A model generated the notes under the pieces. It saw nothing but the letters and a program-made list of their open reading frames with translations, did not search any database and had not been told where the DNA came from. From an uncultured Acidobacteriaceae bacterium (GTDB lineage: Bacteria > Acidobacteriota > Terriglobia > Terriglobales > Acidobacteriaceae), in the NCBI GenBank assembly GCA_963836565.1, contig CAWIKA010000005.1, positions 557,685 through 621,684 on the forward strand: DNA of 64,000 nt, in the 5' to 3' direction. This document shows positions 20,708 through 52,541 of this stretch, piece after piece (position 1 is the stretch's first letter; each line of letters starts with the position of its first letter). The translations under genes and the position numbers were made by a program.

Positions 20708-20716
20708 TTCAACCTC

Positions 20717-23377: not shown

Positions 23378-23386
23378 TCTGACCTC

Positions 23387-26068: not shown

Positions 26069-26069
26069 C

Positions 26070-26411: not shown

Positions 26412-26440
26412 TGCCTCTCCTCTTGCCAACCAATAGAAGC

Positions 26441-26469
26441 AGCATACACATGTCCCTATGGGAATGCAA
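26441..26469 (-). promoter_or_regulatory. Putative sigma70 promoter of padR-permease array
   Basis: Minus strand TTGCAT-N17-TATGCT, overlapped by the inverted repeat CCTAT-N9-ATAGG (26455-26473). Confidence 0.6.
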
Positions 26470-26519
26470 TAGGTCGATTCGAGGACCGGCCGTCAACTGG
26501 TGTTCCGTTGAATCGCGGG

Positions 26520-27872: not shown

Positions 27873-28029
27873 GAATGTCTCCCAAGGGCCCACGGCGCTG
27901 CCGCGGACATCACCGCCGGGAAATGCGGAGGTTTGCGGCGCACAGAAAACGGGCCGGAATGCCGCACCCTTTATAGCAGAAGCAGGATGCGGCGGCAGGC
28001 GAGCCGGAAGCAAACATGCTAGGCCGCGA

Positions 28030-31000: not shown

Positions 31001-31482
31001 TCGCGCTTATTCAGCGGCAGTTCGCTCACGGCCTGGCTTGAAAGCTCTTCGCCGCCGGTCGCAGACTGCTCCTTTTCCTGGAGAGCGGACACGGTGATTT
31101 CTCCGCGACTCGACAAGGTCAAAACCACCGCGGAAGCGGAGGACGATAGCACGATAGATTCCGGCAATTCGAATTTGCGGGTATTGGCTTCCACGGTGAG
31201 GTGGTATTGTCCAACAGGCAACGCAGTTAAAAGGAAGTGGCCATCTGCGCTGGTGACGGCCTTGGCCGCAGCACTCCCGGCTCCCAAGACAATCGTGGCC
31301 CCAGCAATGGGAGCGCCCGCGACATTCCGCAGCACACCTTGCCAGTGCACCCGGGTCGCAGGTTGTGCACCTGACACGACGCAAGAGAGCGATGTTATCA
31401 ACACCAGAGCACAGAATCCACGCCGAATCGTGCCCGATAATCCGCAACCTGTCCCGCATCCATTTCGGAAGTTAGTATTCAC
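28030..31482 (-). CDS. Oar-like TonB-dependent receptor with carboxypeptidase-regulatory-like N-domain
   Basis: LPLNKRDF, SGFHGSVFEFVRNSAFDARNYF, RRNEFG, LDYGLRWE, QFRSEFFNLFN, RQIQFSLKLIY. Confidence 0.92.
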   Translation of the reverse strand: MNTNFRNGCGTGCGLSGTIRRGFCALVLITSLSCVVSGAQPATRVHWQGVLRNVAGAPIAGATIVLGAGSAAAKAVTSADGHFLLTALPVGQYHLTVEANTRKFELPESIVLSSSASAVVLTLSSRGEITVSALQEKEQSATGGEELSSQAVSELPLNKRDFSSLLLLAAGTMTDANGATNFTAQFAINGQRGVEATFAMDGADISDPEMGGSTFSNFNVDAVESIDSSSGWMPAEIGRGASGFTNIITRSGASGFHGSVFEFVRNSAFDARNYFDHATLAYPGRIPPFRRNEFGFTNGGPVYIPHLYDGRKRTFYFTEYQGFRQVLGTTQVMPVPTADQRPTGGSSLVNDTVAYPDKSVDTLAVPVDPGIAAVLARYPMPNLPTGSYGANTYATASKVVTNADQFSLRIDHDFSPKDRFFARFTMDNLTGPTTNPDQTAVDPSFGVQYIDRQRNVVGIYTRTVSPRLILESLISITRSTPGFPTTNYTDPAVKFNDGLFEAFNGAAGSVMQAYGNLFQGRQTVAFTTGRHAFKAGFEARLNRDTTYFGISPNGEYDFGGGTAYSTETIASQSGTHNIAIGDPLPDTFSGFLSGSPFAYTVAIAPPYFSNGEHIGPAAINRNNFDVWAQDTWKVTPRFTLDYGLRWELYTPITERARRTGGFLTVNGTQEYVVNPQPGYETNKNGFGPRVQASWQVSSKITAHAGGGITVIPPNIWQDNFLTGQAPFAVYPRLLSASNAPIQYGFKITPAQLPNAYTPAGVNIFASGKTTTVAPNTVMDVDRYEKDVAALTPGNVVSALNLAGIDRSFGNATLFTWTAGLERKLGNLTADASYVGTAAERLPRYGFPNAYPGAYPGFAPHTQFDSAGNVIGGFGVENVIYADAHSTYHALQTSLSGTVGHGGPGIQASYTWSKSIDDTSYVLGGTGSTGAVASGFSQNPYDTHPEKGPSAFDVTHGFGLSLAQDLHLESADFLHPVSRRVTDGWELLSISSISSGSPFTVFSGIQQTGYGSNGVDRPDQIAKPNLSTARKNRQDYFGEGANNATDFFSIPIHLPGGTGPNQGRFGTLGRNSFRGPAFYNFDFALIKDTPFGHRKSGAERVDLQFRSEFFNLFNIVTMGLPANILNGSGFGEISKTAGNSRQIQFSLKLIY

Positions 31483-31666
31483 TTAAATGAGGCCTTCATC
31501 CTGTACTGTACGCGACGCCGCCAAGATAGTTCCGGCGGAAGCAAATTGGCATCACATTGTTAAAGGGAATTATACCTTTAAACCATTTACTAAAAGCTTT
31601 TTGTAGATCGAATCCACAAACTTGTCGCAGCGCAATTCTTGCGCAACCTCTACACTGTTCCAAGCC

Positions 31667-33055
31667 ATGACGGAATCCTCGATAGCCACGGATACTATTG
31701 CTGCCATCTCCACACCTCCGGGTCGCGGCGGGATCGGCATCGTGCGACTGAGCGGCCCTGAGGCCGGATCGATCGCGGCGCAGTTGGTAAGCCTGCGCCA
31801 GTCGATGGAACATGCGCGAGCAAGATTGGCCGATGTACTGGATGCACCGGAATCGGGCGGTAGGCACATCGACGAAGCGGTCGTTACATGGTTTGGCGCG
31901 CCGAACTCCTACACCGCGGAAGATGTGGTGGAAATTGCGGCGCATGGGTCGCCCGTGGTGTTGGAACTACTGCTGCGCAGGGCCATGGACCTGGGCGCGC
32001 GGCTGGCCGAACCGGGCGAGTTTACGCAGCGAGCGTTTCTGGCCGGCAAGCTGGATCTTACGCAAGCTGAGGCAGTGCGCGATTTAATCGATGCGCAAAC
32101 GTTGACACAGGCGCGGCAGGCCGCGAGCCAGATGGGAGGCGCGCTGAGCCGGCGGGTACAGCCCCTGAAGCAATCGCTGGTGGAGTTGATCGCGCTGCTT
32201 GAGGCCGGGATTGATTTTGCCGAGGACGATGTGGACGTGACTCCGCAATCCGAGATCGCGCGCCGCATCGGTGAACTGGCGCTGTCGCTCGCCTCGTTGG
32301 AGGCTTCGTTTGCGCGCGGCCGTATCGTTCATGACGGGTTGACGCTTGCCATAGTGGGCCGCCCGAACGCGGGCAAGAGCTCGCTGTTCAATCGCCTGGT
32401 AGAGCGTGACCGGGCGATTGTCACCGCGACTCCCGGAACCACGCGCGACCTGGTGACGGAACGGATTTCACTGGATGGCATTCCTCTGGAGCTGGTGGAT
32501 ACGGCCGGCCTTCGCGAGTCCTTCGAGGAAGTCGAGCAACTGGGTATTGCCCGCAGCCGCGAAGCACTGGCCGATGCCGCGCTGGTGCTGGTGGTGCTGG
32601 ATTCGACTCAGCCGCTCAATGAAGAGGAACGGAATTTGCTGGCCGCGCTTGAGGGCCGTTCTGCAATCGTCGCGATCAACAAGAGCGATCTGGCGGGGAA
32701 CGCTGGAGTAGGGGCAGATTTTTCCGCAGCCGAATCCGCTGGGATAGCCGCGCTGGCTACATCGGCGCTCACCGGCGAGGGGATTGGCGCGTTGCGCGAC
32801 CGCATTCTTGCCCTGGCTACTGGCGGCGCGGCTGCAGAGCCCGGCCTGCTGACCAGCTTGCGCCATCAGCAGGCAATCGCCAACGCGCAGTCGGCGCTTG
32901 CGGATGCCGCGGGGGCCAATCAGAACAAGATTCCCCACGAGATGATCCTGATTGACCTCTACCGCGGCCTTTGGGCTCTCGACTCACTCACTGGCCAGAC
33001 CACTCCCGACGACATTCTTAATTTGATCTTTTCAACCTTCTGCATCGGAAAATAG
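31667..33055 (+). CDS. mnmE: tRNA modification GTPase MnmE
   Basis: GRGGIGIVRLSG, GRPNAGKSSLFN, PGTTRD, DTAGLR, NKSD, C-terminal FSTFCIGK. Confidence 0.98.
   Translation: MTESSIATDTIAAISTPPGRGGIGIVRLSGPEAGSIAAQLVSLRQSMEHARARLADVLDAPESGGRHIDEAVVTWFGAPNSYTAEDVVEIAAHGSPVVLELLLRRAMDLGARLAEPGEFTQRAFLAGKLDLTQAEAVRDLIDAQTLTQARQAASQMGGALSRRVQPLKQSLVELIALLEAGIDFAEDDVDVTPQSEIARRIGELALSLASLEASFARGRIVHDGLTLAIVGRPNAGKSSLFNRLVERDRAIVTATPGTTRDLVTERISLDGIPLELVDTAGLRESFEEVEQLGIARSREALADAALVLVVLDSTQPLNEEERNLLAALEGRSAIVAINKSDLAGNAGVGADFSAAESAGIAALATSALTGEGIGALRDRILALATGGAAAEPGLLTSLRHQQAIANAQSALADAAGANQNKIPHEMILIDLYRGLWALDSLTGQTTPDDILNLIFSTFCIGK
33034..33055 (+). repeat. attL of mnmE-integrated island
   Basis: AACCTTCTGCATCGGAAAATA(G); 20/21 identical to 61256-61276. 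Confidence 0.92.
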
Positions 33056-33174
33056 GTATAAGTTGTTTTTTATAAACAACTTGCATAACACTTAACAGAT
33101 CCAAATTTCTGCAGAAGTGAGCCAACCGCCACTCGTTCATCTGTCCGGAAAGCCAACTATACGTCCATATGGTT

Positions 33175-33355
33175 CTTGACCTCTGCCGTGACAGCACAAG
33201 TAAACGATTGAAAACAAATGATTTCATGGGCGTTGATGGCTAAGTTCAGCACCCTTGAGCATTCAAAAACACCGGGAAAATCGCCAATTTCAGTTTTCAA
33301 CACCCTCTCCAGCACCCTCGACTTTTCACGGCTCAGAAACCCCTTGACCTCTGCC
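33175..33355 (+). repeat. Cluster of short direct repeats near attL (arm-type binding-site candidates)
   Basis: CTTGACCTCTGCC at 33175 and 33343; CARCACCCT at 33247, 33298 and 33310. Nearby inverted repeat AAGTTGTTT-N5-AAACAACTT at 33060-33082. Confidence 0.6.
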
Positions 33356-33493
33356 TATGTTCAACACAGGTCGGGCGCAGGCCGTTTTGATCTCTGGCGC
33401 AAACGACCAGAGATCAATAATTGGTCACGGCCTCCTGCGAACCAGTTTCGATTCCTATCGACGCGTCCATGAGTGCCTAGGCGGAGATAACCG
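33345..33493 (+). repeat. Left-end repeat copy L1 (146-bp direct repeat of 41413-41558)
   Basis: Gapless alignment with 41413-41558, about 13 mismatches over the last 129 bp by hand count; ends GGCGGAG-ATAACCG. Confidence 0.92.
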
Positions 33494-33515
33494 CTCGTAG
33501 AAAATCGAATTGAAT

Positions 33516-34232
33516 TCAATCTTTCAGCGGCGGAGCTGGCGTCCCATCGGACCACTCTCCGGCCCAGATAAGAAAGATAGTAACCCGTTCTTCAGGGTCA
33601 TTTGCCGCCATCCCCGGCGAGCCCGGGAGGTTGGCTCCCCAGCTTTTCGCCGCGTCGCCCGCAACAAAAAACATCAGGTGCGGATGCCAGTTCATGTCGT
33701 GGTCGCTTAGGTACTGTTTCTTTGACATCATGTAGCACATCGCGCCCGGTTCCAAAGCAGGCAGTTCTTTGTTATCGAATGACGACTCGGTCGCCGCGAC
33801 GATCTCAGACTTTGATTTGCCCTCCAGCACCAGTTTGGTTTTCATCAGGTAGATGGGCAAAAAGATCTTTGCGGCCGCCGGATTGAAGCATATGGCGGCG
33901 CGGACATTGGGATTCCAGAATTCCGGGTGATCGGTGGCAGCCCCCCAGGATCGTTCCACGATACAGACAAAGCCATTCTTGCCTTTCACTGCGGTCGTGT
34001 ATCCCTTCCGCCCCAGCACCAACACTTCGGCTCCGTCCGAAACGGATGCTGGCGCAGCATTGCGCGCCAATGCGATCTCTGAGTTCTCATCGGGCATCAG
34101 GTACTCATTTAAAGCAGCCATGGCCGGATACGGAGTCTTCTCCGCCAGCGCAGGTGTCTGACATGTTGAGCTGGCCAAGACAAACTGGATAATGAATGCC
34201 AGCACAGCGATCCTGATTGTCTTATCGTGCAT
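33516..34232 (-). CDS. Exported conserved hypothetical protein
   Basis: Signal peptide; EIALARNAAP, GKNGFVCIVERSW, CFNPAA, YMMSKKQYL, WHPHLMF. Confidence 0.75.
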   Translation of the reverse strand: MHDKTIRIAVLAFIIQFVLASSTCQTPALAEKTPYPAMAALNEYLMPDENSEIALARNAAPASVSDGAEVLVLGRKGYTTAVKGKNGFVCIVERSWGAATDHPEFWNPNVRAAICFNPAAAKIFLPIYLMKTKLVLEGKSKSEIVAATESSFDNKELPALEPGAMCYMMSKKQYLSDHDMNWHPHLMFFVAGDAAKSWGANLPGSPGMAANDPEERVTIFLIWAGEWSDGTPAPPLKD

Positions 34233-34282
34233 GTGGCCCTCCGGAATGCGCACTCGGCTCGAGGTTTGGGTTTACAGGTTCT

Positions 34283-35056
34283 TCACTGACCAGAGACATA
34301 CTTGAGACCTCCATATTGCGGGTTCTTCCACAGTTCACCTTTGTATTCCATGTAGTCAGCGGTGGCCTGCGCGATTTCGCTTCCGTAATACCGTTCGACC
34401 ACATGCAACGCGAGATCGATTCCGGAACTCAGGCCGCCCGCGGTAGCAACTTTGTCATTGTCGACGTAGCGCAGTCCGGTGACGAATTGCACCGCAGGAT
34501 ATTTCTTTTGCATATCATCCATGAACATGTGATGGGTGGTTGCTCTTTGATGGTCCAGCAGACCATAAGCAGCGAGCATAGAAGCGCCCGTGCATACCGA
34601 CATGGTTATGTCCGCAGTCCTGGCGTTTTCCAGCAACCATCTCTTCTGCGCCTCACTTCGCCCGCCTTGCGCAGGGACGACGATCACCTGGGGTCTAGGG
34701 GCATTATCGAAGGTGAAGTTGGGAACGATTTGAAGACCGGCGACCGAGATCGATTTCTGCGAGTCGGAGACGGTGTACAGGTTGAACGGCATGATCATGT
34801 CGTCACCACCGCGCCAAGGCCCACCATGGGGAGCGAGCATAGTATCGCCAAATACTTCCCAGGGCCCCGCGAGATCGACCAGGGCGGTCTGGTCGGAAAC
34901 GATGAACGCGACATTGATGACCCCGTTTGCGGGCGGCTTGAGGATGCGCAACTGGGCGGAGCCAGATTGCGCATTTGCTTGGTGGAGGTGGCTAGCCGCG
35001 GCGAGCGCGCCGCACAGCGCGATGAGACCGAAAACTGTGTAGATTCCTTTGGTCAT
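34283..35056 (-). CDS. DJ-1/PfpI-family protein, exported
   Basis: DLAGPWEVF, SVCTGASMLA (nucleophile Cys), ATTHH, TAGGLSSGIDLALHVV. Confidence 0.88.
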   Translation of the reverse strand: MTKGIYTVFGLIALCGALAAASHLHQANAQSGSAQLRILKPPANGVINVAFIVSDQTALVDLAGPWEVFGDTMLAPHGGPWRGGDDMIMPFNLYTVSDSQKSISVAGLQIVPNFTFDNAPRPQVIVVPAQGGRSEAQKRWLLENARTADITMSVCTGASMLAAYGLLDHQRATTHHMFMDDMQKKYPAVQFVTGLRYVDNDKVATAGGLSSGIDLALHVVERYYGSEIAQATADYMEYKGELWKNPQYGGLKYVSGQ

Positions 35057-35201
35057 TGGTTGACCTCCTGCATGAAGAATTTGCGAACAGCACCAGCTTA
35101 CGGCTACACTGAAATGTCTCAAATGACAATTATCCGGCTTTTCGAGACATTTCTAGGATGAGGTACAACCGGGCGATTTACCGCTTCGTCCTGGCACACA
35201 A

Positions 35202-36176
35202 ATGAAACCAAGACACATCGTGATCCTGGGATATGACGGAATTATGGGCCTCGACCTCGTTGGGCCGATGGAGGCGTTTGCGTGCGCGCACGCGAAATCG
35301 TCAAAGGCGGGCACGGAAGTATGTTATCGAATCACCGTAGCAGCGCTGGAGGAAAAGACATTTCGCTCCGAATTCGGGCTTGCTATCACGGCGGATTGTA
35401 GCCTCTCCGGCATTCGCGATGTGGACACATTTCTCATCCCCGGCGGCCGAGGCCTGCGCGAGTCCGATGGCCAACTGAAGCTTACAGAGTGGTTGCAGAA
35501 GAACGCTGGCTCGATACGGCGGATCGCATCGGTTTGCACGGGGATCTATGGCCTTGCACCTTCGGGATTGTTGAACGGCCGAAAGGTCGCGACGCACTGG
35601 AGGTTCATTGCAGATTTGGCGAAGCGTTATCCGGCGCTAAAGGTTAATTCCGGCTCGCTTTACATTAGGGACGGGAAATTCTGGACCGCTGCAGGAGTGA
35701 CCGCGGGGATCGATCTCTCGCTGGCCCTAATCGAAGACGATTTCGGCTCGGAGGTAGCGCTTTCGGTCGCGCGCGAACTGGTCGTATACATGAAGAGATC
35801 TGGAGGGCAGGAGCAGTACTCAGAGCCGCTCCAGTTTCAAGTACAATCGCGCAGTCGCTTTGCGGATCTTTTGGCGTGGATGCCGGCGCACCTGGAACAG
35901 GATCTTTCGGTCGAGGCACTTGCAGATCGAGTTTCGTTGTGTCCACGGCAGTTTTCGCGGCGCTTTACCCAAGAGTTTGGTAGCAGCCCGGCTTCATTTG
36001 TGCGTCGACTGCGTCTGGACGAAGCGCGGCTGCGTCTCTCCGCGCCAGAGTGTACGGTGGAGGGCGTCGCGCGCTCGGTGGGATTCAGCGACAGCGATAA
36101 TTTCCGGCGAGCCTTCGAACGGTCCTTCGGGATTGCACCGAGTAGCTATCGAGGACGGTTTGCGGCGAGGCAATGA
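35202..36176 (+). CDS. GlxA-type AraC regulator (DJ-1 sensor domain plus HTH)
   Basis: SVCTGIYGLA, TAAGVTAGIDLSL, KRSGGQEQYS, AraC HTH GFSDSDNFRRAF; divergent from the DJ-1 gene. Confidence 0.92.
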   Translation: MKPRHIVILGYDGIMGLDLVGPMEAFACAHAKSSKAGTEVCYRITVAALEEKTFRSEFGLAITADCSLSGIRDVDTFLIPGGRGLRESDGQLKLTEWLQKNAGSIRRIASVCTGIYGLAPSGLLNGRKVATHWRFIADLAKRYPALKVNSGSLYIRDGKFWTAAGVTAGIDLSLALIEDDFGSEVALSVARELVVYMKRSGGQEQYSEPLQFQVQSRSRFADLLAWMPAHLEQDLSVEALADRVSLCPRQFSRRFTQEFGSSPASFVRRLRLDEARLRLSAPECTVEGVARSVGFSDSDNFRRAFERSFGIAPSSYRGRFAARQ

Positions 36177-36274
36177 TGACAGCGCCGAAAGTATCGGAAG
36201 AAACATTCAAAAATCGAGTCTTCTGGAACTGATGAGGGTAGGCGAACCCTCTGACTGCTTCTTGTACGCGGCCT

Positions 36275-38236
36275 TTAAATTGCGATTGGCGCCTCGTCCC
36301 GGTTCGAAATATGTTGCGATTCTCTGGGCGGAAGCAGGCGGGTCGAATTGAGGATGAACGTCAACTCGGACGCGACGTGGATGAACGCGGCCAGCAGCGG
36401 ATTGAGATAGCCAGCCGCGGCCAAGCCTATTCCGATGGTATCGACGATCAGAGTGCCATAGAAATTCTGTAGGATGATGGCGCGGCAACTTTTTGCAACG
36501 CGAACGGTTTCGACGAATTTCATGAGGTCGTTTCCGATCAGCACTACATCCGCACTTTCGCGGGCGACATCGGTTCCAGCACCCATGGCAACACCGACGG
36601 TGGCTTCGCTCAGCGCGGGTGCGTCGTTGATGCCGTCGCCGAGCATGGCCACGACTCGCCCTTCCCACACCTGTTCTGCGATTTGATGCGTTTTCTGCTC
36701 AGGAAGAAGTTCCGCGTGAACATTGCGGATGCCAAGATGGCCAGCTAGCGCTTGCGCGGTTTGCCTGGTATCTCCTGTCAGCAAGACAACATCGATTTTC
36801 ATCTCCCGGAGGGCCTTGACGGCTGACGCGGAGCCGGGCCGCAACTGATCCGCAACGACCACCGATCCAACGTACTTTCCGTTGTGTGCAACAAAGATCT
36901 CCGTGCCCTCAGCGGCGGGGCGCTCGGGCAGCTTCAGTCCCAATTCAGTGAAGAGCGGCCGATTGCCGGCAACAGTTTCTTCGCCCTCCGCTTCAGCCCG
37001 CACTCCCCGTCCAATCCGGTATTCGAAATGAGTTGGTTGGGAGACAGGAATGCTTCGCTGCTCCGCGAGACGAACGATCGCGCGACCCAGCGGATGCTCC
37101 GAATTGCTTTCAGCACTGGCAGCCACTTCAATGAGCGAACTCTCGGTAACGCCCGGCGCAGGGTTGACTTCTGTGACTGACGGAGTGCCGAAGGTGAGAG
37201 TTCCCGTCTTGTCGAGGAAGACGGTATTGAGTTGCCCAAGCGCCTCAAGGTAGATTCCGCCCTTGATGATGGAGCCGTGCCGTGCCGCGCGTCCGATGGC
37301 GCCAAGGATGGCCAGCGGAGTACCGGCGGCGATGCCGCAGGCTCCGGCGACAATGATGACCGAGATCGTGGAGCGGATATTGTGCGTGATAAGAAACGTG
37401 AGGATTGCGGCGCCTAGCGCGAAGTAGACCAGGTAGCCGGCCAGGCGGTCGGCCATCTTCTGAATAGGCGCCCGCGAATGCTCCGCCTTTTCCACGGCTT
37501 CTATGATCTTGCCGAATGTGGTCTCTTTTCCGAGCCGGTCAGCGCGCACCTGAAGGCTGCCTGCCTGGTTGATCGTGCCTGCATACACTTCCTTGCCCGC
37601 GGCCTTTTCGCTCGGCATCGGTTCGCCGGTAATTGCAGCCTCTTCAACAAACGAGTGGCCACTTACAACCTGGCCATCGACGGGAATTCGGCTGCCAGGA
37701 CGAATGACAACGATTTCGCCGGGAAGGATTGTCTGCGTGCGCACCTCGACAATCTGGCCGTTCCGCAGCACACTTGCCACTTGAGGGAGGAAGTCCAGCA
37801 TGTCCTGGATGGCTCGCCGGCCCCGGCCGACGGTCAATCCCTCCAGAATCTCGGCCGCCAGAACAAATGCGGTTATGACCAAAGCTGTGAAGAACTCGCC
37901 GATGGCCAGAGCGGAGACGAGCGCTATCATCATCGACAGCTCCATTGTCATGCGGCGCTCGACGATGTTCTCAACCGCCTCCTTGAAAATTGGATAGCCG
38001 CCGATCAGAGTGGCCGCCAGTCCGATCACGCTAACGCGATGGAATGGCTCCCACAGATGAAACCAGACTGCTGCCGCCGCCAATGCCACGAATAGAACAC
38101 GGAGCACCTCGACGAGTTCGAATGGGTGCTCATGATCGTGTTCAGCACCGTGGCCTTGCTCGTGATGCGGATGGGAATGGTTCGAATGCAGTTCGTCCTC
38201 GTCGAGGTGAGTTACGGTTTCGTGGGTGGCGGCCAT
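36275..38236 (-). CDS. Heavy-metal P1B-type ATPase with His-rich N-terminus
   Basis: TGEP, DKTGTLT, SEHPL, GDGINDAP; N-terminal HSNHSHPHHEQGHGAEHDHEH; metal-helix motif VAGACGIAAGTP. Confidence 0.93.
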   Translation of the reverse strand: MAATHETVTHLDEDELHSNHSHPHHEQGHGAEHDHEHPFELVEVLRVLFVALAAAAVWFHLWEPFHRVSVIGLAATLIGGYPIFKEAVENIVERRMTMELSMMIALVSALAIGEFFTALVITAFVLAAEILEGLTVGRGRRAIQDMLDFLPQVASVLRNGQIVEVRTQTILPGEIVVIRPGSRIPVDGQVVSGHSFVEEAAITGEPMPSEKAAGKEVYAGTINQAGSLQVRADRLGKETTFGKIIEAVEKAEHSRAPIQKMADRLAGYLVYFALGAAILTFLITHNIRSTISVIIVAGACGIAAGTPLAILGAIGRAARHGSIIKGGIYLEALGQLNTVFLDKTGTLTFGTPSVTEVNPAPGVTESSLIEVAASAESNSEHPLGRAIVRLAEQRSIPVSQPTHFEYRIGRGVRAEAEGEETVAGNRPLFTELGLKLPERPAAEGTEIFVAHNGKYVGSVVVADQLRPGSASAVKALREMKIDVVLLTGDTRQTAQALAGHLGIRNVHAELLPEQKTHQIAEQVWEGRVVAMLGDGINDAPALSEATVGVAMGAGTDVARESADVVLIGNDLMKFVETVRVAKSCRAIILQNFYGTLIVDTIGIGLAAAGYLNPLLAAFIHVASELTFILNSTRLLPPRESQHISNRDEAPIAI

Positions 38237-38252
38237 GAGATCTCCTGACTTT

Positions 38253-38531
38253 TCAGTTGAAATAGCGCTTCACGACAGCGATGAGGTCGTCCGCCGCCGA
38301 TTGCTGCGCCGGGCGTGTTTTCTGCTCGGGGTCGAGCACATGGAAACGCAGGTGGCCTTCGATCAGCTCCGCCATCAATCCGTTAAGAGCGCCGCGGCAG
38401 GAAGCAACCAGTTGCAGAATCTCCTCGCATTCACCTTCCCCTTCAAGAGCCCGTTCGATGGCCTCCACCTGGCCCTTGATACGCCGGACGCGTGTTAGAG
38501 TCTTCGTCTTGTTCTTCGAAATATGTGACAA
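38253..38531 (-). CDS. CsoR/RcnR/FrmR-family metal-sensing repressor
   Basis: RVRRIKGQVEAIER, ECEEILQLVASCRGA, LIEGHLRFH. Confidence 0.92.
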   Translation of the reverse strand: MSHISKNKTKTLTRVRRIKGQVEAIERALEGEGECEEILQLVASCRGALNGLMAELIEGHLRFHVLDPEQKTRPAQQSAADDLIAVVKRYFN

Positions 38532-38552
38532 TTCGTTCTCCCTCTTTGCTAG

Positions 38553-38574
38553 TAATATACTCCCCTATACTATA
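38553..38574. promoter_or_regulatory. Candidate RcnR/FrmR-type operator
   Basis: TAATATACTCCCCTATACTATA: AT-rich arms around a C-tract, between divergent genes. Confidence 0.55.
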
Positions 38575-38603
38575 AGAGGAAATGGGTAGCAAGGAGCGAA
38601 ACC

Positions 38604-38957
38604 ATGCTGGAGACCAAACGCCTCGTGATTGGCCAAATGATTGTCTGCCACGGCTGCTGCTGCGGGGCGACCCAGAAAGACCGCCCCGAGGTACCGGTCA
38701 AGTGGCTGAAGGATGAGTGGCGAAAGCGTGGCCTCTTAAAGCGGTTTCAACTCACCGTGAGCGGCTGTGTCGGCCCCTGCGACGTTCCAAATGTCGTGGT
38801 GGTGAATTCGGAGGCCGGTTCGCAATGGCTGGGTAATATCACCCATTTCAACCAATATCGCTCGCTGATTGAGTGGGCGGTGCGATCCGTTGATGCTGGA
38901 CATCTGCTGGAGTTGCCGCGCGAATTCAAGGACCATCGGATCGAACCCTGGCGCTAA
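38604..38957 (+). CDS. Cys-rich thioredoxin-like (2Fe-2S ferredoxin-type) small protein
   Basis: VCHGCCCG and SGCVGPCD motifs. Confidence 0.7.
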   Translation: MLETKRLVIGQMIVCHGCCCGATQKDRPEVPVKWLKDEWRKRGLLKRFQLTVSGCVGPCDVPNVVVVNSEAGSQWLGNITHFNQYRSLIEWAVRSVDAGHLLELPREFKDHRIEPWR

Positions 38958-39006
38958 GTTTCAATGCTCGCTCTTGATGGTTGAAACCGATGGTGTGGAC
39001 GCCGCG

Positions 39007-39399
39007 TTACGACTTGGCGGGGATACACGCCGCACATGTGCCGTAAACGTAAAAGTCGTGCCCGGATGCGCGAAAACCCTTGGGCAATTTCGGCCTGCTC
39101 TGGGCAACACACCCTTGCAGGTCGTACAGCTTCCCGCAGTCGTTGCATTGAAAGTGGTGATGATGTTCTTTGCCCGCCACTTCGTACCGCTTGGAATCTC
39201 CAGGTACTTCGACCGGCTGCAGCCATCCTTCCTCAACCAGCGTCTGGATGTTTCGGTACACCGTGGCAATCCCAACACCCGGATGGTGCTGCTGTGCCGA
39301 TTGGAGAACTTCTTCAGGAGACAGCGGCCGGTTGGCTCCTGCAAAAGCCTCTCGAATGGCAGTCTTTTGTCTGGTGTTTCGAATCTCTCTGGTGCTCAA
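39007..39399 (-). CDS. Fur-family regulator (Zur/Nur-like)
   Basis: TRQKTAI, GIATVYRNI, HHHHFQCNDCG, YVYGTCAAC. Confidence 0.92.
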   Translation of the reverse strand: MSTREIRNTRQKTAIREAFAGANRPLSPEEVLQSAQQHHPGVGIATVYRNIQTLVEEGWLQPVEVPGDSKRYEVAGKEHHHHFQCNDCGKLYDLQGCVAQSRPKLPKGFRASGHDFYVYGTCAACIPAKS

Positions 39400-39505
39400 T
39401 CGAACCTCCTCTGTGCAAGATTAACGACTCCTCTTGATCCGGAATCCGGCGTTAAACCCCGACTCGAAATGAAGCGTCATCGGAATGCGCCGATCGCGCA
39501 ATCGT

Positions 39506-39530
39506 GATAATGATATACCATTACCATTAT
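39506..39530 (+). promoter_or_regulatory. Fur-box-like sequence abutting the lgt start
   Basis: GATAATGATATACCATTACCATTAT, compared with the Fur consensus GATAATGATAATCATTATC. Confidence 0.55.
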
Positions 39531-40398
39531 GGCTACCGCCGTTACTTTCCTGATTCCGGCACACCACTACTGGGTCGATCGGCTCAATCCGTGGCTAGTC
39601 CATTTCGGCAGCGGATTTGGAGTTCGCTGGTACGGGCTCGCGTACCTGGCAGGATTCCTGCTCGCCGGATGGATTCTTGCACGTTGGGCTCGCAGAGGGA
39701 AACTGCCGATTCCGGAGAAGGAAGTAGCCAGCTTCATCCTCTATGCTGCGCTGGGCGTGATGATTGGCGGCCGACTCGGCTACTGCCTCCTGTACAACCT
39801 ACACGAGGTCGTACATCGCCCTCTTGAGATTCTGAAGGTCTGGCATGGCGGCATGGCAAGCCACGGCGGAATGGCTGGCCTGATCGTCGCCATCTGGTTT
39901 TTCGCGCGCCGCCGGGGTCTGAATACTCTCTCGCTGCTGGATGCAGCAGCGGCAACCGGGCCGCTCGGCATCGCTCTGGGCCGCATCGCGAACTTTGTGA
40001 ATGGAGAACTGTGGGGCAGACCGGCCCTTGTCCCCTGGGCGGTCATTTTCCCTGATGCGCCTCTGGTGGGCGGCCATCAGGTGCCGCGTCATCCCAGCCA
40101 GCTTTACGCTGCCGGAATCGAAGGGTTCCTGGTCTTCTTCGTGGGTCTCACGGTGTACGGCAAATCCTCCCGGCCCGGACTCACCACGGCTACTGTGCTG
40201 ACGGTCTACGGCGTAGGACGATTCATCGACGAGTTTTGGAGGCAGCCGGATATGGGTCAACCCGTCTATTGGGGATGGATGAGCAAGGGGCAGCTCTTGA
40301 CGATCCCGGTGATTGTTGCCGGGCTCTCGTGGCTTCTGTGGTACAGAGTGCACTCGGTTGGGGTGGGAAAAACAACGAGCGCCGCCGGATGCGACTAA
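39529..40398 (+). CDS. lgt: Prolipoprotein diacylglyceryl transferase
   Basis: VRWYGLAY, GGRLGYCL, WHGGMASHGG, GRIANFVNGELWGR, RHPSQLY, RFIDEFWRQPD, MSKGQLL. Confidence 0.96.
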   Translation: MATAVTFLIPAHHYWVDRLNPWLVHFGSGFGVRWYGLAYLAGFLLAGWILARWARRGKLPIPEKEVASFILYAALGVMIGGRLGYCLLYNLHEVVHRPLEILKVWHGGMASHGGMAGLIVAIWFFARRRGLNTLSLLDAAAATGPLGIALGRIANFVNGELWGRPALVPWAVIFPDAPLVGGHQVPRHPSQLYAAGIEGFLVFFVGLTVYGKSSRPGLTTATVLTVYGVGRFIDEFWRQPDMGQPVYWGWMSKGQLLTIPVIVAGLSWLLWYRVHSVGVGKTTSAAGCD

Positions 40399-40467
40399 AC
40401 CTTATTGCCCTATGCAGCGACAACAACAGGTCACGAATGACCTTTGGAAGAATCATGGAGTCACACA

Positions 40468-41193
40468 ATGAACCCTCTGCTTCTCACCTCGATGGCGGCC
40501 GTTTCAACTTCTGTGGGCGGCTATTGTGCCGTCCTGCTGCAGCGGAGAGTCCATCTGCTCATGTCCTTCGGCACCGGAGTGCTCGTTGGCGCTGCCCTGC
40601 TGGATTTGCTCCCCTCCGCATTGTCGGCCGCGGAAAGCTCAGGTTCATCGAAGGCACTGGTTTTTCCCATCGCTGCCTTCGGCGGCCTGCTTATCTTCTG
40701 CATCGGGGAAGTAGCGAGCCGTTATCGAGCAAACAGGGTCGGTAATCGATCGGCCGGAAGGGTCAGTGCCTCTTTCCTCATTGTGCACAGCACTCTCGAC
40801 GGAACGGCTATCTTCGCTGCGTCCACCATATCGCTGCAGTTGGGGCTGATTGTGGGACTCGGAGTCGTAGCGCACGATATATGCGACGGATTGAACACGA
40901 TCCTGCTGGCCACCGGCGCAGAAAAACCTGGATGGACCGATTACGGGTTTCTGGCGCTCGATGCCCTGGCGCCCATCGCCGGCGGCCTGATCGCAGCCCA
41001 TCTCTTCCGGGTCTCCGATGCGCTGGTCATGGTCTTTCTTAGCCTTGCGGCAGGATCCTTTCTCTTTACCGCATTCTTCGGTCTGCTTCCCGATACTTGG
41101 CGACGCGCAAGCCGCAGTCTGGTGCTCTCCCTTGGACTCGTCGGCTTTTTGCTGATCCTGTGCCTCACAAAGCTGGTCGGCGCGCTTGGGTAG
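40468..41193 (+). CDS. ZIP-family metal transporter
   Basis: FGTGVLVGAALLDLLP, VHSTLDG, VAHDICDG, AAGSFLF...LLP. Confidence 0.85.
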   Translation: MNPLLLTSMAAVSTSVGGYCAVLLQRRVHLLMSFGTGVLVGAALLDLLPSALSAAESSGSSKALVFPIAAFGGLLIFCIGEVASRYRANRVGNRSAGRVSASFLIVHSTLDGTAIFAASTISLQLGLIVGLGVVAHDICDGLNTILLATGAEKPGWTDYGFLALDALAPIAGGLIAAHLFRVSDALVMVFLSLAAGSFLFTAFFGLLPDTWRRASRSLVLSLGLVGFLLILCLTKLVGALG

Positions 41194-41412
41194 AAGGAGT
41201 GGCCCCGCGGCACCGGCGAGATCAACCGAAAGTTTGGTGGAGACACTCCGCTGATTCGTACAGGCAAACGCGCTCATTGACGAGGGCGCACGTGACTGGA
41301 ATCAGCTTCTGGACGGCAATCGCTGCGCTTCTGCACCCGACCGGCGCCCTCGTCGTTTCATCTATCTCCGCAGGTCACTGGAGCTTTGAGATTTACGCGC
41401 GCGGCTATGCGA

Positions 41413-41567
41413 TGACCACTGCTCAGGCACAACATAGGTCAGGCGCACGCCGGTTTGACCTCTGGTGCAAACGACCAGAGATCAATAATCGGTCACGGCC
41501 TCCTGCGAACCAGTTTCGATTCCTATCGACTCGTCCGAGAGTGAGTTGGCGGAGATAAGCGGCCAAT
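41413..41567 (+). repeat. Left-end repeat copy L2, including the terminal inverted repeat ATAAGCGGCCAAT (41555-41567)
   Basis: Direct repeat of L1; TGGCGGA core at 41547-41553. Confidence 0.92.
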
Positions 41568-41619
41568 AAGCTGGGCCACGTGATCGTGGGTTGCAGTAAG
41601 AAGTTATATTTTCTTTCAG

Positions 41620-42237
41620 TTGGATTTTCTTCAGGAGGCGGAGCCCCGCTTCCTGCCAAGCATCTTGGCGGATCGCAGCGGGAAGCGGGACCCGTGTGAG
41701 GTAACGATCCTCTTTGTCCCAGTGTCGGTCCCGCTGGAGCGGCTTGCTGCCGGCTGGGCCGAAGACTCGGACGAGAGTATTTTACGCCGATGCCCGGTTT
41801 GCGAACAGGATTCGATTGTTGGCCATGGGCGACGGCGCAAGCAGGCGCACGACGAGCATCACGATTGGATCGGGATTCGCCGGGGCCGCTGTATCCGATG
41901 CGGAAAGACATTCACGTTTCTGCCGGTGTTCTCTCTGCCCTATACGCATTACAGCCTGCTGGCGCGCTGCCAGGCATTGCTGCGTCGCTTTGTGGAGCAC
42001 TGTTCGTGGGAGAAGGCAGCGCCGAAGTTGAAGGATCCTGACCGCGTACCCGATTCTTCCACTGTGCGCCGCTGGTCGCAAGGTGTGGACGAGTCACAGC
42101 CGGCCCTGTCTTTTCTGCGCAAGGTGGCTGCGCGAGCGGCTAAGTGGCTGGAATCTGCTTACTCGGATCAGGACGAGGCAGCGTTCTTATCCTGGCTGAC
42201 TCCGGTTCTCGAAGTCATCTGCCCTATGCGCCGCTGA
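41620..42237 (+). CDS. Zn-ribbon protein (DUF6431-like) with C-terminal HTH-like segment
   Basis: CPVC...GHGRRRK...IRRGRCIRCGKTFTFLP...Y; VPDSSTVRRW. Start uncertain. Confidence 0.72.
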   Translation: MDFLQEAEPRFLPSILADRSGKRDPCEVTILFVPVSVPLERLAAGWAEDSDESILRRCPVCEQDSIVGHGRRRKQAHDEHHDWIGIRRGRCIRCGKTFTFLPVFSLPYTHYSLLARCQALLRRFVEHCSWEKAAPKLKDPDRVPDSSTVRRWSQGVDESQPALSFLRKVAARAAKWLESAYSDQDEAAFLSWLTPVLEVICPMRR

Positions 42238-42320
42238 GAAAAAATCCTTTTCCCCACCATCCTTGCCTGGGAACTCCAGCATGGTTCTCCTACGCTGGGC
42301 TCCGGAGGCGAAAAGGCGCT

Positions 42321-43310
42321 GTGGGTGAAGACGTCGAAAGACTAAAGCGGCGAACGCCGCTGCTGGAGTACCTGCGACAGCACGACTGGGCAGGGCGGCC
42401 CGCAGGCCGATTCGAGTATGTCGGACTCTGTCCACTACACAAGGAGAGTCAGCCGTCGTTCTATGTGAACGCGCGCAAAGATGTCTTCTACTGTCACGGC
42501 TGCGGACAGGGCGGCGATCTCATCCGCTTCGTCCAGTTATCGCGCGGCTTATCCTTCCGCCAGAGCGTGGCCAGCCTCGATCCGGAGATCGCTCCGCAAG
42601 CTGATTCCAACGCTGTGCTTGAGGATGCCGCGGCGTTCTATCAGCAGCAACTGGATCGCTGCTCCGAGGCGCTCGACTATCTCCACCGGCGCGGAGTGCA
42701 TGATCCGGCACTGTTCCGGGAACTCGGCATCGGCTACGCACCAGGTGGAACCCTGCGCCGATATCTGACCGCGCAAGGCTATTCGTTCGATGTGTTGCAA
42801 AGGCTCGGCCTCATCGACGCTCGTGGCGCGGATGCTCTCTATCAGCGCATCGTGTTTCCGTTGCAGCAGAGCGAGCACATCGTCAACCTCTACGGCCGCA
42901 GCATCGGTTCTGCGTTCGCCCATCGCTTCCTGCCCGGGAGCAAGGGCGGCCTGTATGCATGGGAGAAGGTTCGCAACTGCTCCGAGGTGGTTCTGGTCGA
43001 AGGGCTGTTCGACTATGCCGCCCTGCGGCAGGCTGGGTTCCATAACGTGACCTGCTCGCTGGGTACACAGCTCAACCAAGACCAGTTCCGCCAGTTGTGC
43101 GAAGGCCAACGCACCGTCTATCTCACCTTCGATGTCGATCGGAACCAGAGCGGCCAGCAAGCTGCAGAGCAACTGGCTCAGCGTCTTGTCATGCAAGGTA
43201 TCTCGGCACGTCGCGTTCTCCTGCCTGATGGTCATGATCCTAACTCCTTCTTCGTTGAAGGAGGAGACGCACCTCAGTTCCAGTCTCTGCTGGAGGCTGC
43301 GCAGCCATGA
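42321..43310 (+). CDS. DnaG-like primase (CHC2 Zn finger + Toprim, no helicase-binding domain)
   Basis: GLCPLHKESQPSFYV, FYCHGCGQGGDLIRFV, RIVFP, LYGR, VVLVEGLFD, YLTFDVD; GTG 42321 after GGAGG. Confidence 0.92.
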   Translation: MGEDVERLKRRTPLLEYLRQHDWAGRPAGRFEYVGLCPLHKESQPSFYVNARKDVFYCHGCGQGGDLIRFVQLSRGLSFRQSVASLDPEIAPQADSNAVLEDAAAFYQQQLDRCSEALDYLHRRGVHDPALFRELGIGYAPGGTLRRYLTAQGYSFDVLQRLGLIDARGADALYQRIVFPLQQSEHIVNLYGRSIGSAFAHRFLPGSKGGLYAWEKVRNCSEVVLVEGLFDYAALRQAGFHNVTCSLGTQLNQDQFRQLCEGQRTVYLTFDVDRNQSGQQAAEQLAQRLVMQGISARRVLLPDGHDPNSFFVEGGDAPQFQSLLEAAQP

Positions 43311-44350
43311 AGTTCCACGTGATCTCGAAAAAGACCTCTACGGGCGCGCATAGTCCGATTCAGGTGGTGCAGCAATCCACCGGCAAGGGCGTTGCGTGGA
43401 TTAATCGGTACCTCGACCGCGAGTACGTCCGCCGCCTCGCAGACAAGTCCCTCTACAGCTACGCGCACAGCCTGTTGCACTTCGTACGCTGGTGGGAGAG
43501 TGTCCATCACACTGGTGAAATCTCTGCTGCTGACCTTACCGAGTCGACTCTGTTCGATTACGTACGCTTCCAATCGAGCCTCCGACCTCCGCCTTCTGCC
43601 TCCACCATCAACGACCGCACCGCCACTGCCGATCGCGCTATCCGTAATCAGTTCCCCGATGCTCCATGTCAGGTCGCGCACGGCTTCCATCAGCCCTTCC
43701 TGCACCGCAGGCCGATGGGCCTGGGACGGCCCAGGTTCGAGCTGAGCAGACTCAGAGTGCGGGAACCCAGGCTCAACGTCGTTCCTCTCTCGGTCGATGA
43801 AGTGGCGCGCTTCTGGTCCAGTTTTCGAAACGCTCGCGACCTGGCCATCGTCGGCCTGATGCTGATGCAGGGGCTCCGCTCCGCCGAAGTGATGGCCTTG
43901 AACCGTGACGATGTGCTGCTCTCCGAAGGGCAGCTTCGGGTGCGCGGCAAGGGGAACAAGCTACGCTTGCTGCCCCTGGCGCCGGAAACCACGCAACTGC
44001 TCGATCACTATCTCCGCGTCGAGCGCCCCGATCCCTGTTCGGCGGCACTGTTCGTGGTCTTGAAAGGGTCCGCTCGCGGCCAACGCATGACACCGGCGGG
44101 ATTACGCTCCCTGTTCCGTCATCATCGCCGCACCTCCGGCGTTCAACTAGCCAATCCCCACCGGTTCAGACATACCTTCGCCTCGGACATGGTGCGCGCC
44201 GGCATCAGCCTGCCCGCGCTGATGCAGTTGATGGGTCATGCCGACATCGAGACCACCATGCACTACGTGAAGGTCTCACCGCAGGATGTCTATCTCCAGT
44301 ACGCCCGCGCGGCGGCGCAATGTATCCATCCGCAACCGAGGATCTCCTGA
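43307..44350 (+). CDS. Tyrosine recombinase 1
   Basis: GLRSAE, VRGKGNK, PHRFRHTFA, LMGHADIETTMHY; ATGA overlap with the primase stop. Confidence 0.96.
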   Translation: MKFHVISKKTSTGAHSPIQVVQQSTGKGVAWINRYLDREYVRRLADKSLYSYAHSLLHFVRWWESVHHTGEISAADLTESTLFDYVRFQSSLRPPPSASTINDRTATADRAIRNQFPDAPCQVAHGFHQPFLHRRPMGLGRPRFELSRLRVREPRLNVVPLSVDEVARFWSSFRNARDLAIVGLMLMQGLRSAEVMALNRDDVLLSEGQLRVRGKGNKLRLLPLAPETTQLLDHYLRVERPDPCSAALFVVLKGSARGQRMTPAGLRSLFRHHRRTSGVQLANPHRFRHTFASDMVRAGISLPALMQLMGHADIETTMHYVKVSPQDVYLQYARAAAQCIHPQPRIS

Positions 44351-45486
44351 TGCGCTGGCGCCGTCCTCCACTTCAGCATCCCCTGGCACTGGCCTTCGCG
44401 CACGCGGTCGAGTCTCTGTGCACCGCACTCACTCCTTCCAGCAAACGCAATTACGACATCGCGGTGCGCAGCTTCCTCGTTTATCTGGGCGCAGAATATC
44501 CGAAGATTACTCGTCTCGAACAACTGCGCCGCGATCCTCATATCCTCGGATGGATGGCGCACCTGCGCGCCCAGAATCCGCCTCTGGCCACGGCAACCTG
44601 CATCGGACGGCTCTTCGCGCTGCGCACTATCTTCCATGAGCTCGCTCGCACCAGCCATCTCGCTGAACTGGCCCACTTGCTGCTGCGCGAGGATATCCCG
44701 CGCTCGCCCCATACTCTGCCACGACCGCTTACCCCCGAGCAGGATCAAATCCTCCAGCAGGAGTTCATGCGCCGCAACGATCTCGGCGGAAATGTCTTCC
44801 TCCTGCTCCGCTCGACCGGCATGCGTATCGGCGAGTGCGTCGATCTCTCCTACGACTGTCTGCGCTCCACGGGGCCGAACCAATGGGCCATCCATGTTCC
44901 CCTCGGCAAACTCAAGACCGAGCGCATGGTCCCGGTCGATATCTTCGGCCGCGATCTCGTGCACCGCCTGCGCTTCTTCCGCTCTCTCGACCCTCTGCCT
45001 GCGGATGGTCGCCTACTGGCGCGGCCCGGAAGCAAAATAGCTATCCTGGTTCAGCTCCGCGATTACCTGCATCAGGTCTGCCACTCCCTCGGACTCTCTA
45101 CTCGCATCGTCCCCCATCAGTTCAGACACACTTACGCCACGGAGATGCTTCGCTCCGGGGTCAGCTTCCCCGTCCTGATGAAATTACTCGGCCACGTCGA
45201 TCCGGCCATGACCATGCGTTACGTCGATGTCGCCCTCACCGATCTCGAACGCGAGTTCCAGTTGGCTCGTTCCAAACCCAGGCATCTGGCTCCACAACCC
45301 AAAACTTCGACCGCACCCGCAAGGGCAGGCCTCGACGGCCTCATCGATGCCTTAGTCGCCGCTCAACACCTTATGGAGATGTTCCGTCGATCGCTCACAA
45401 ACGGCAGCGCTCGCAATCGGCTCCTCCGGCTCTCCAAACGCCTCATCAAAATCCTGACCGAGATAAGAAAACTCCACACCACCTGA
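44350..45486 (+). CDS. Tyrosine recombinase 2 with C-terminal helical extension
   Basis: TGMRIGE, LGKLKTER, PHQFRHTYA, LLGHVDPAMTMRY; TGATG overlap with recombinase 1. Confidence 0.96.
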   Translation: MRWRRPPLQHPLALAFAHAVESLCTALTPSSKRNYDIAVRSFLVYLGAEYPKITRLEQLRRDPHILGWMAHLRAQNPPLATATCIGRLFALRTIFHELARTSHLAELAHLLLREDIPRSPHTLPRPLTPEQDQILQQEFMRRNDLGGNVFLLLRSTGMRIGECVDLSYDCLRSTGPNQWAIHVPLGKLKTERMVPVDIFGRDLVHRLRFFRSLDPLPADGRLLARPGSKIAILVQLRDYLHQVCHSLGLSTRIVPHQFRHTYATEMLRSGVSFPVLMKLLGHVDPAMTMRYVDVALTDLEREFQLARSKPRHLAPQPKTSTAPARAGLDGLIDALVAAQHLMEMFRRSLTNGSARNRLLRLSKRLIKILTEIRKLHTT

Positions 45487-45521
45487 ATGAAAATGGGCAC
45501 CGATTGGCCGGTTATGGCGGA
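45473..45521 (+). repeat. Right-end copy R1
   Basis: tccacaccacctgaatgaaaatgggcaccg-ATTGGCCGGTTAT-ggcgga. Confidence 0.88.
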
Positions 45522-45652
45522 TTTGTCATCCGTCGAGCGAAATCTCATCAAAGCGAAACACACTTCTTAGTAGCGAGACGCACGGGGCGGATCTGCAACC
45601 TTTCTGGAAAACCGCCTTGTCAGGAAGCTTCGGACAACTCAGTCTGTGGAGA

Positions 45653-49150: not shown

Positions 49151-49279
49151 TCGCCAACAGGCCTAGCGCTGGTCGAGACGAAGGGTATCCGAATGAGCGT
49201 TCGATTCGATACCCGGCAATTTGGCATCAACTGCGAGCTCCGCGCGATTTCAAGCGGGGCGCGGTTCCTGCCCAATGCG

Positions 49280-49948: not shown

Positions 49949-49957
49949 TGGAGTGCC

Positions 49958-52416: not shown

Positions 52417-52507
52417 TTATCCACCCGACCAGAACACTGTGCGGAGCCTGCAAGATAGGCTCCGTATTTTTTATGTTCGCCTGCCCGTTTGCCCTCCCTC
52501 ATGCGTG

Positions 52508-52529: not shown

Positions 52530-52541
52530 AGCATTCTCAAG

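Follow-up and report, generated by a model that had tools for sequence, protein, structure and literature searches.

Introduction

In XerC/XerD–dif recombination, in IMEX and in the pdif modules of Acinetobacter plasmids, two simple (arm-domain-less) recombinases are encoded by the host, and dif itself has an 11-6-11 spacing. RIT elements carry three adjacent recombinase genes and terminal inverted repeats (IRs), Tn554 has no IRs and a single site, att554, and IS1397 and ISKpn1 use DDE transposases to home into abundant palindromic REP units. The strand-biased circularising integrative elements (SEs) SE-6945 and SE-6283 of Vibrio have four clustered core genes in the order intA-CDS2-intB-CDS4, two of which encode tyrosine recombinases (PMC9345347). 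These SEs are bounded by imperfect 19-bp C/C′ repeats, have a 6-bp crossover and a strand-biased circle, and enter an attB without dyad symmetry (PMC9345347). Here we describe a tyrosine-recombinase transposon of 3,967 bp from an uncultured Acidobacteriaceae bacterium, found in a stretch of 64,000 nt (the window) of contig CAWIKA010000005.1 (assembly GCA_963836565.1). It lies in a genomic island, beside the right one of two 146-bp direct repeats that flank an 8-kb block with metal-homeostasis genes.

The SEs are the nearest described architecture to this transposon, and Xer/dif is its nearest enzymology. The comparison with the SEs, which is one of architecture by published description only, showed that both have four core genes, two recombinases, short terminal IRs as core-type sites, a small crossover, sequence-preferring insertion and an increase in copies. 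However, the other two core genes of the SEs have no Pfam domains, whereas here they encode a DUF6431 protein and a DnaG-like primase, and the gene order differs. The 13-mer IRs, the clear palindromic target and the acidobacterial host also distinguish the element from the SEs, which are found in Gammaproteobacteria, and no Vibrio plasmid was among the tblastn matches at E ≤ 1e-20. With Xer/dif the element has in common two different simple recombinases, a palindrome-like target with two arms around a short centre, and flanks that appear to be re-assorted at the site. Unlike in Xer/dif, the recombinases are encoded by the element, the target spacing is 11-12-11 and the arms of the element site differ from those of the target; we know of no FtsK dependence of the element. 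Compared with pdif, module shuffling is here only suggested.

Tandem, overlapping tyrosine recombinase genes serve as the transposition module in RIT elements and Tn554 as well, and RIT elements also have IRs, but the element has just two recombinases, and its primase and DUF6431 genes are found in neither family. Classification as a RIT element was rejected because three recombinases are needed, and the open reading frames (ORFs) after 45486 encode SnoaL-like and HxlR proteins without an integrase domain. Homologous recombinase pairs without the primase and DUF6431 genes were found on Rhodococcus and Mycobacterium plasmids. On the Rhodococcus pyridinivorans plasmid pRpMTN (L088, 4947–7954; labels of the style L001–L100 denote comparison loci from other genomes or metagenome contigs), an overlapping homologous pair (37% and 28% identity) lies in the same order by an IS256/Mutator transposase. 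Homing into the centre of a short palindrome that is present at many places in the genome resembles the behaviour of IS1397 and ISKpn1; unlike these, the element uses a tyrosine recombinase pair and its flanks are not enriched in palindromes. A BIME/REP-like palindrome mosaic in the flanks was rejected: palindromes with arms of at least 8 nt occur in 10 of 67 flanks, without enrichment over random segments (69 of 670) or shuffles (33 of 335).

Results

The intact transposon occupies 41552–45518 on the forward strand and was delimited by Pfam and NCBIfam matches, by ends shared with other loci and by depth. Its 13-bp left IR, ATAAGCGGCCAAT (41555–41567), forms a perfect pair with the 13-bp right IR, ATTGGCCGGTTAT (45503–45515). 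Between them, on the same strand, Pfam identified the gene for a zinc-ribbon-like DUF6431 protein (41620–42237) and one for a DnaG-type primase with a CHC2 zinc finger and a Toprim domain (within 42144–43310), followed by the tyrosine recombinase genes for recombinase 1 (43307–44350) and recombinase 2 (44320–45486), both with Pfam and NCBIfam matches. The two recombinases contain Phage_integrase domains (E = 3e-30 and 8e-21) with XerA and XerC as top NCBIfam matches, and recombinase 1 also matches XerD and XerA structures in the Protein Data Bank. The two have diverged from each other: only their C-terminal ~66 residues can be aligned, with 47% identity. On these matches, both are predicted to be Xer-like 'simple' enzymes.

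When recombinase 1 was used as the query for a scan of species-representative genomes, 352 relatives were found, the best 80 of which are 85–97% identical. All relatives are in metagenome-assembled genomes (MAGs) of the Acidobacteriaceae/Terriglobales, with up to 8 loci per MAG and with many contigs of 4–6 kb that break at the element; many of the comparison loci are MAG contigs. BLAST of the island against about 75 loci in 200-bp bins revealed that the DNA common to the loci is restricted to about 41.53–45.5 kb. The left junction across loci reads ...RTGAGYGNNTTGGCG / GAGATAASCGGCCAAT (the slash marks the junction), and at nearly every locus a second, inverted end, ATTGGCCGSTTATGGC / GATTT..., follows ~3.96 kb downstream, in the window at 45518. 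Both ends were found in 50 copies, and in 49 the paired ends are 3.95–3.98 kb apart (3,950–3,980 bp). Furthermore, in low-coverage contigs from four soil metagenomes, word depth is 15–80x within 41.55–45.5 kb and 0–7x outside, a step of 5–10x, and many different sequences adjoin 41538–41554 and 45517–45519. The depth step and the heterogeneous adjoining sequences independently support the element boundaries. With its own recombinases, ends shared at many loci and vacant sites that share a short core, the element is a tyrosine-recombinase transposon.

The insertion target was defined from the 50 copies, whose flank consensus is TCGaTGAGTGCnTtGGCG / GATTttGCgctnAtcGAga. The consensus target, TCGATGAGYGC-N12-GCRCTCATCGA, is imperfectly palindromic, and the element sits at its centre. 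In 46 of 50 copies GGCG stands before the left tip (GAGATAA), and the right flank opens with GATTT in 21 of 50 and with G in most. GGCG is common to attL, attR and the vacant sites (attB), and GGCGGAG stands at both junctions in a few copies (L028, L035). Several target units were found both occupied and vacant. The flank unit of the vacant site in L031 stands before inserted elements at other loci; 167 nt common to L046, L070 and L032 also stand before vacant sites in L031 and L062, and the flank in L021 is identical to that of a vacant site in L006. The right half of the target occupied at L2, the right repeat copy, is GGATTTGTCATCCGTCGAGCGAAATC (45519–45545, forward strand), and this half is vacant in L085, a contig with an identical SnoaL gene whose homology to the window starts at 45515. 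An empty-site profile, built from 45 reconstructed vacant sites of other insertions with the window left out, detected more than 20 further vacant sites crossing the junction among the comparison loci.

Based on these junctions, we propose that the element circularises and that its ends would join as a 13-7-13 site, ATTGGCCGSTTAT-GGCGGAG-ATAASCGGCCAAT, a layout typical of tyrosine-recombinase core sites. The circle site would then recombine with the chromosomal palindrome at the common core GGCG, and the crossover would lie inside this core or adjacent to it. Because the element site and the target have different arms, two recombinases would be needed, and by analogy with XerC/XerD one may act on the element arms and the other on the target arms. 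The primase and the DUF6431 protein may also have some role.

The first-pass annotation had taken an IR with a far arm at 60.9 kb as the boundary of a ~19-kb element beginning at L2. From L2 the element extends only as far as 45518, and an IR-bounded element of 19.4 kb (41.5–60.9 kb) was rejected because every other copy ends ~3.96 kb downstream, as in the window. The far arm is instead the left junction of a separate, gene-less miniature copy of the element, 359 bp long and in the opposite orientation (60549–60907, reverse strand), which has a right-type end (60549–60564) and a left-type end (60892–60907). Its site continues into R (60908–60994, reverse strand), which consists of the core, the left arm and the left-flank unit, forms IRs with both L2 and L1, the left repeat copy, and is 95–96% identical to vacant sites in L004 (17264–17349) and L006 (16280–16365). 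In these two loci the flank stands without the miniature, reading ...CAG / GCC / AAGTCACTCATTCACCCGG..., and represents its empty site. Miniatures of the same length were found in L030 (14748–15106) and L042 (1741–2099), with 84% identity over 376 nt, and a 248-bp copy in L070 (7058–7305). The miniature, with both end types, no coding capacity and occurrence at several loci, is a MITE-like derivative and presumably non-autonomous. A repeat search of the whole window had returned a 29-nt inverted match of 97% between L2 (41539–41567) and 60892–60920, and L1 (33462–33493) also pairs inverted with R (60898–60929) at 84%. The apparent 37-nt L2/R IR is made up of two left junctions that face each other, each a target arm plus an element tip. 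A Tn3-family element, suggested by an IR of ~38 nt, was rejected on the same composition, target arm plus 13-nt element IR, and no ~1000-aa DDE transposase or resolvase lies between the arms.

The repeat itself was recovered by the repeat search of the window as 33345–33493 and 41413–41561 (149 nt, 87% identical, ungapped). Between 33345–33490 and 41413–41558, 127 of 146 positions are identical (87.0%), and over the last 129 bp the count is 116 of 129 (89.9%), in agreement with the 146-bp direct repeats of about 90% over that stretch that had been described before. The two longest stretches without a mismatch measure 40 and 23 nt, identity just outside the repeat is down to 22–40%, and an internal 20-mer and an internal 29-mer each occur exactly twice in the window, where shuffles expect 0. 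Both copies read GGCGGAGATAA, then CCGCTCG at L1 and GCGGCCAAT at L2, so that the first-pass reading of this sequence, with L1 going on with CCG, was correct. Its placement of the IR was not: it had the IR start exactly at the repeat end (ATAA) and the conserved 140 bp lie outside, but the L2/R match already runs from 41539. As the L2/R and L1/R inverted matches overlap the repeat, the last 20–30 nt of the direct repeat lie inside the IR.

We dissected each repeat copy into X, the ~115 nt of its upstream part, and a target arm. Each copy closes with ~25 nt that correspond to the left arm and core of the palindromic target. At L1, the target-side unit X (33345–33458, forward strand) is 88.6% identical to 41413–41526 and contains a hairpin, GATCTCTGG-N9-CCAGAGATC (33389–33415, forward strand). 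It is followed by the left arm and the core GGCG (33459–33483, forward strand; core 33480–33483), which fit the empty-site profile and the left-flank consensus, and then by GAGATAACCG (33484–33493, forward strand), 10 nt that equal the left tip of most other element copies. At L2, the second copy of X (41413–41526, forward strand) has its right ~64 nt 94% identical to L083 and L084, where the site is vacant. The left arm and core GGCG that follow (41527–41551, forward strand; core 41548–41551) form attL of the intact element: the profile match ends exactly at the junction, and at 41538–41554 the depth jumps and heterogeneous loose ends are seen. The end of the repeat is therefore a target arm joined to an element tip, and the repeat is neither a fragment of a coding gene nor an insertion-sequence end unrelated to the ATAA arm. 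A coding origin was rejected, the ORFs 33218–33472 and 41097–41558 looking spurious and ending differently in the two copies. We conclude that L1 and L2 are probably two copies of a single unit, the left half of the site into which the transposon preferentially inserts.

The nature of X was examined by comparison with the other insertions. Beside other copies of the element only the last 30–37 nt of the repeat recur, and the upstream ~115 nt are absent at about 60 copies; the repeat does not always precede the element. Copies with identical interiors within one genome (L039–L046, L058–L063) have different left flanks. These two findings argue that X is target-side DNA and not a part of the element. 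An exact-word scan of 185,579 species-representative genomes gave no match to the core of X, and three metagenome contigs matched (L082, L083 and L084). In these, the right 57–64 nt of X are present at 82–94% identity in unrelated contexts, each followed by a vacant site, which reads ...CGTCCGTGAGTAAGTTGGC / AATTTGGCAG in L083 and L084 and ...CCCATGCGTGAGTTGGCG / ATTTACCACTCGTTGC in L082. The conserved part of the repeat had been described as either a preferred target or an accessory part of the element end; the first largely stands, with X missing at about 60 copies and found before vacant sites, and the second fails as a general property. No sigma-70-like promoter was found in X, so a promoter that drives the element from there was also rejected.

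Several points weigh against the interpretation of L1 and L2 as half-site units. X is low-copy, with 0 genome matches and 3 metagenome contigs, and its depth in the metagenomes is that of a single copy, so that the term dispersed target repeat is weakly founded for this subtype. The profile match at L1 crosses the junction (model positions 9–64, E = 0.025) only at low posterior probability, 0.4–0.6 beyond it, and at L2 and R the match stops at the junction. A right-arm-only profile holds too little information to discriminate at L1, and L1 as a clean vacant site was not established. That homology between related sites should always stop at the core is not accounted for by simple transposition. 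Neither a circular junction (the back-joint 45518→41552) nor an excised, empty L2 site was seen among the low-coverage contigs of the four metagenomes. The comparison loci are largely MAG contigs, in which chimeric joins across the 4-kb repeat are possible at occupied sites.

L1 is a left junction in which 10 nt of the element tip are preserved; unrelated DNA then runs into the gene for a 245-aa protein. The first-pass annotation had recorded a partial arm (ATAACCG) here. L1 could represent an insertion that has decayed, a variant site, a site that was vacated and kept a footprint, or a module's left end. The last of these is connected with the way in which homology ends at other sites. Sites with a common left unit were compared in nine pairs, and in all nine the 60 nt on the left side of the core are 85–100% identical and identity is lost on the right. 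The right half seen in the window has an unrelated left side in L085, the R-flank unit meets a different right partner in each of the window, L004 and L006, and in L041 the 245-aa gene was seen by eye to abut a site core with a different left unit. From these alignments, left and right partners appear to have been repeatedly re-assorted at the crossover.

Such re-assortment at the core is what integration of a site-bearing circle, or site–site recombination, would produce, and it keeps alive an explanation in which L1 and L2 are attL and attR of the block (~33484–41550). The block would then be a recombinase-less module whose circle integrated at X-bearing sites and was mobilised in trans by the transposon recombinases; the 146-bp repeat would reflect similarity of attP and attB, and the 4-kb element would have inserted later into the right junction of the module. 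An 8.07-kb circle of the block and a deletion joining X directly to GAGATAAGCGG would be expected. We found that direct repeats do flank the block, with homology on the right ending exactly at the core, and the right side of L1 opens with 10 nt of element-type tip. Halves are re-assorted at the core in the nine same-subtype pairs, in L085, in the L004/L006/R flank and, by eye, in L041, and an inverted site marks the end of the metal genes in the window, as it does in L004. However, neither an empty site nor a circle of the block was found, and no joint between L1 and L2 was present in the low-coverage metagenome contigs. No variant without 33491–41558 was found, the only structural variant being one without any of the 28.2-kb island. 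For deletion or amplification of the block by homologous recombination, which the first-pass annotation had proposed, these observations amount to a weak negative. A right-type element end and a recombinase are both absent from the block, the part shared with L004 starts at 36271 and not at a core, and other ZIP-gene contexts stop ~50 nt before the site. Furthermore, the copies are just 87% identical, and two independent insertions into two related sites fit the same data. We therefore regard an attL/attR pair as unlikely.

An accessory role for X is far less probable. X would then belong to the left end of the element, or be flank carried along via an upstream alternative site, with identical X pointing to one donor locus. 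Discrete flank units of 60–170 nt do recur beside elements in different genomes and end at the junction, and Vibrio SE elements carry over 6 bp of the donor left flank (PMC9345347). Against this, about 60 copies are without the X of the window, identical-interior copies in one genome have unrelated flanks, the same units stand at vacant sites with no element nearby, and no core-like sequence was found at the left boundary of X.

It is scarcely credible that X encodes a small structured RNA, or acts as a regulatory element, and serves as an integration target in the manner of a tRNA or tmRNA, its duplication regenerating the gene end: a strong hairpin (L1 fold z = −4.4 against shuffles), a 40-nt stretch kept perfectly between the copies and the right ~60 nt recurring at 82–94% in the three metagenome contigs speak for it, but ARAGORN found no tRNA or tmRNA in the window, Rfam at gathering thresholds found only a group II intron at 52.5–54.3 kb and at E ≤ 10 nothing relevant over L1, no promoter-like site is present, the L2 fold is no better than shuffles (z = −1.7) with its one hairpin change breaking a pair on the forward strand, and other target units are unrelated in sequence. 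A T-loop-like GTTTCGATTCC in the repeat was a false lead as a sign of a tRNA.

The 8-kb block between the two repeats (33516–41193, genes on both strands by Pfam) contains, from left to right, the gene for the 245-aa protein, to which no function was assigned (33516–34253, reverse), a DJ-1/PfpI gene (34283–35122, reverse), a DJ-1+AraC regulator (35202–36176, forward), a P-type ATPase (36275–38236, reverse), a CsoR/RcnR-type repressor (38253–38531, reverse), a 117-aa ORF (38604–38957, forward), a Fur family gene (39007–39399, reverse), an Lgt gene (39529–40398, forward) and a ZIP transporter (40444–41193, forward). Positions 36271–41281 are 90.6% identical to L004 12269–17281. The right border of the metal block is a degenerate, inverted target-like site (41264–41294, reverse), CGTACAG / GCaAAcgCgCTCATTGAC, which forms the same junction as L004 17257–17290, has one mismatch to RTGAGYGNNTYGGC and was missed by the profile. 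On the far side of inverted sites, (T)GCGTACAG / GCC recurs at 41264–41270 and 60542–60548 in the window, in L004 (17257–17263) and in L085 (~3636–3650), and is possibly a right-half subtype. In L098–L100 (~2500–6700), a CsoR-type repressor, a P-type ATPase, a Fur-family regulator and a ZIP gene form an ordinary chromosomal cluster in Terracidiphilus. The metal block of the island is an additional, rearranged copy that has gained Lgt. Cargo status within an element was rejected for L004, where the metal block sits just outside the right end of the element; the block is island cargo beside transposon landing sites and not transposon cargo.

The enclosing island was delimited by comparison with L001, a MAG contig of GCA_049280555.1. 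L001 is 99.98% identical to the window over 21667–33054 and resumes at 61252–64000 by BLAST, and L002 likewise passes directly from 33054 to 61252. The window therefore carries a 28.2-kb insertion (33055–61261), absent from L001 and L002, in the last mnmE codons (F-C-I-G-K-stop). The insertion is flanked by a perfect 15-bp duplication, CTGCATCGGAAAATA, which has exactly two copies in the window, one in the last mnmE codons (33040–33054, forward strand) and one at the right island junction (61262–61276, forward strand). An exact MnmE look-up gave two contigs in which the 675-aa gene found at 61342–63369 of the window lies 64 bp downstream of mnmE. Both repeat copies, the 8-kb block, the transposon and the miniature are inside the island.

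SGI1 integrates in the last 18 bp of thdF, the gene also called trmE or mnmE (PMC2297512). The 28.2-kb island resembles it in its position in the last mnmE codons, its short direct repeat and its remnants of mobilisation genes. Unlike SGI1, it has no SGI1-like integrase or backbone that we could find, is in another phylum, and its conjugation genes are fragmented and interrupted by a group II intron; no integrase was found at the island ends. A decayed conjugation/mobilisation module (49193–54347) includes a T4 coupling-protein fragment (49193–49948), a TrwC relaxase (49958–50845) and an AAA_30 helicase (50882–52033). Directly downstream of these fragments is the group II intron (52541–54347, reverse strand) with its reverse transcriptase/maturase gene (52618–53877). 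The island also holds an IS110-family transposase gene (55175–56191, DEDD_Tnp_IS110 and Transposase_20), of which an 81%-identical stretch is present in L051, and assorted regulators.

Two further observations concern the surroundings of target sites. A motif, TGTCCGGAAAGSCRACTATACG, was seen by eye 50–100 nt left of target sites in L037, L058, L082, L007 and L004, and its window copy (33139–33172) is ~85 nt inside the left edge of the island. In L082 (~266–553, reverse strand), the vacant site after X lies ~110 nt past a tRNA 3′ fragment, GGTTCGATCCCGACCAGGCCCACCA, in which ARAGORN finds no full tRNA; this site may be the edge of another integrated island, as L1 is near the mnmE junction. Elsewhere in the window, 17662–25916 consists of four tandem paralogous units of ~2.67 kb with 60–70% identity, which encode MacB_PCD/FtsX-type permeases by the L001 gene calls, and 9342–9550 holds short G-rich GGGACGAGGGAAC-like repeats with an inverted copy ~105 nt away (36-nt arms, 83% complementary).

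Discussion

The supposed ends of a large transposon for metal resistance are three junctions, all of a single small element family and inside an mnmE island, and the annotation of the block changes with them. The repeat belongs to an ordinary class, the junctions of a site-specific mobile element. In the literature that could be searched, no matching description was found for DUF6431, Acidobacteria or transposons with two recombinases and a primase, which is not proof of novelty; the family seems to be a variant that has not been described before, and its site pair is well defined and tractable.

Acidobacteria rank among the most abundant bacteria in soil, and little has been described of their mobile elements. 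The family found here is prolific, with hundreds of MAG copies in addition to miniatures, and has an unusual gene set of two Xer-like recombinases, a DnaG-type primase and a DUF6431 protein. Since both deduced sites, the 13-7-13 site of the element and the ~34-bp palindromic target, are short, the system is experimentally tractable, and it could be turned into a tool for site-specific integration in a phylum with which genetic work is difficult. In addition, the break of homology exactly at the crossover suggests that the sites also drive rearrangement of neighbouring genes. It is possible, although rather doubtful, that the palindromic sites are exchange points at which the Xer-like pair re-assorts blocks of DNA in the manner of pdif modules or integron cassettes, the 8-kb block being one such module. 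If true, cargo would move between islands of Acidobacteria outside any transposon.

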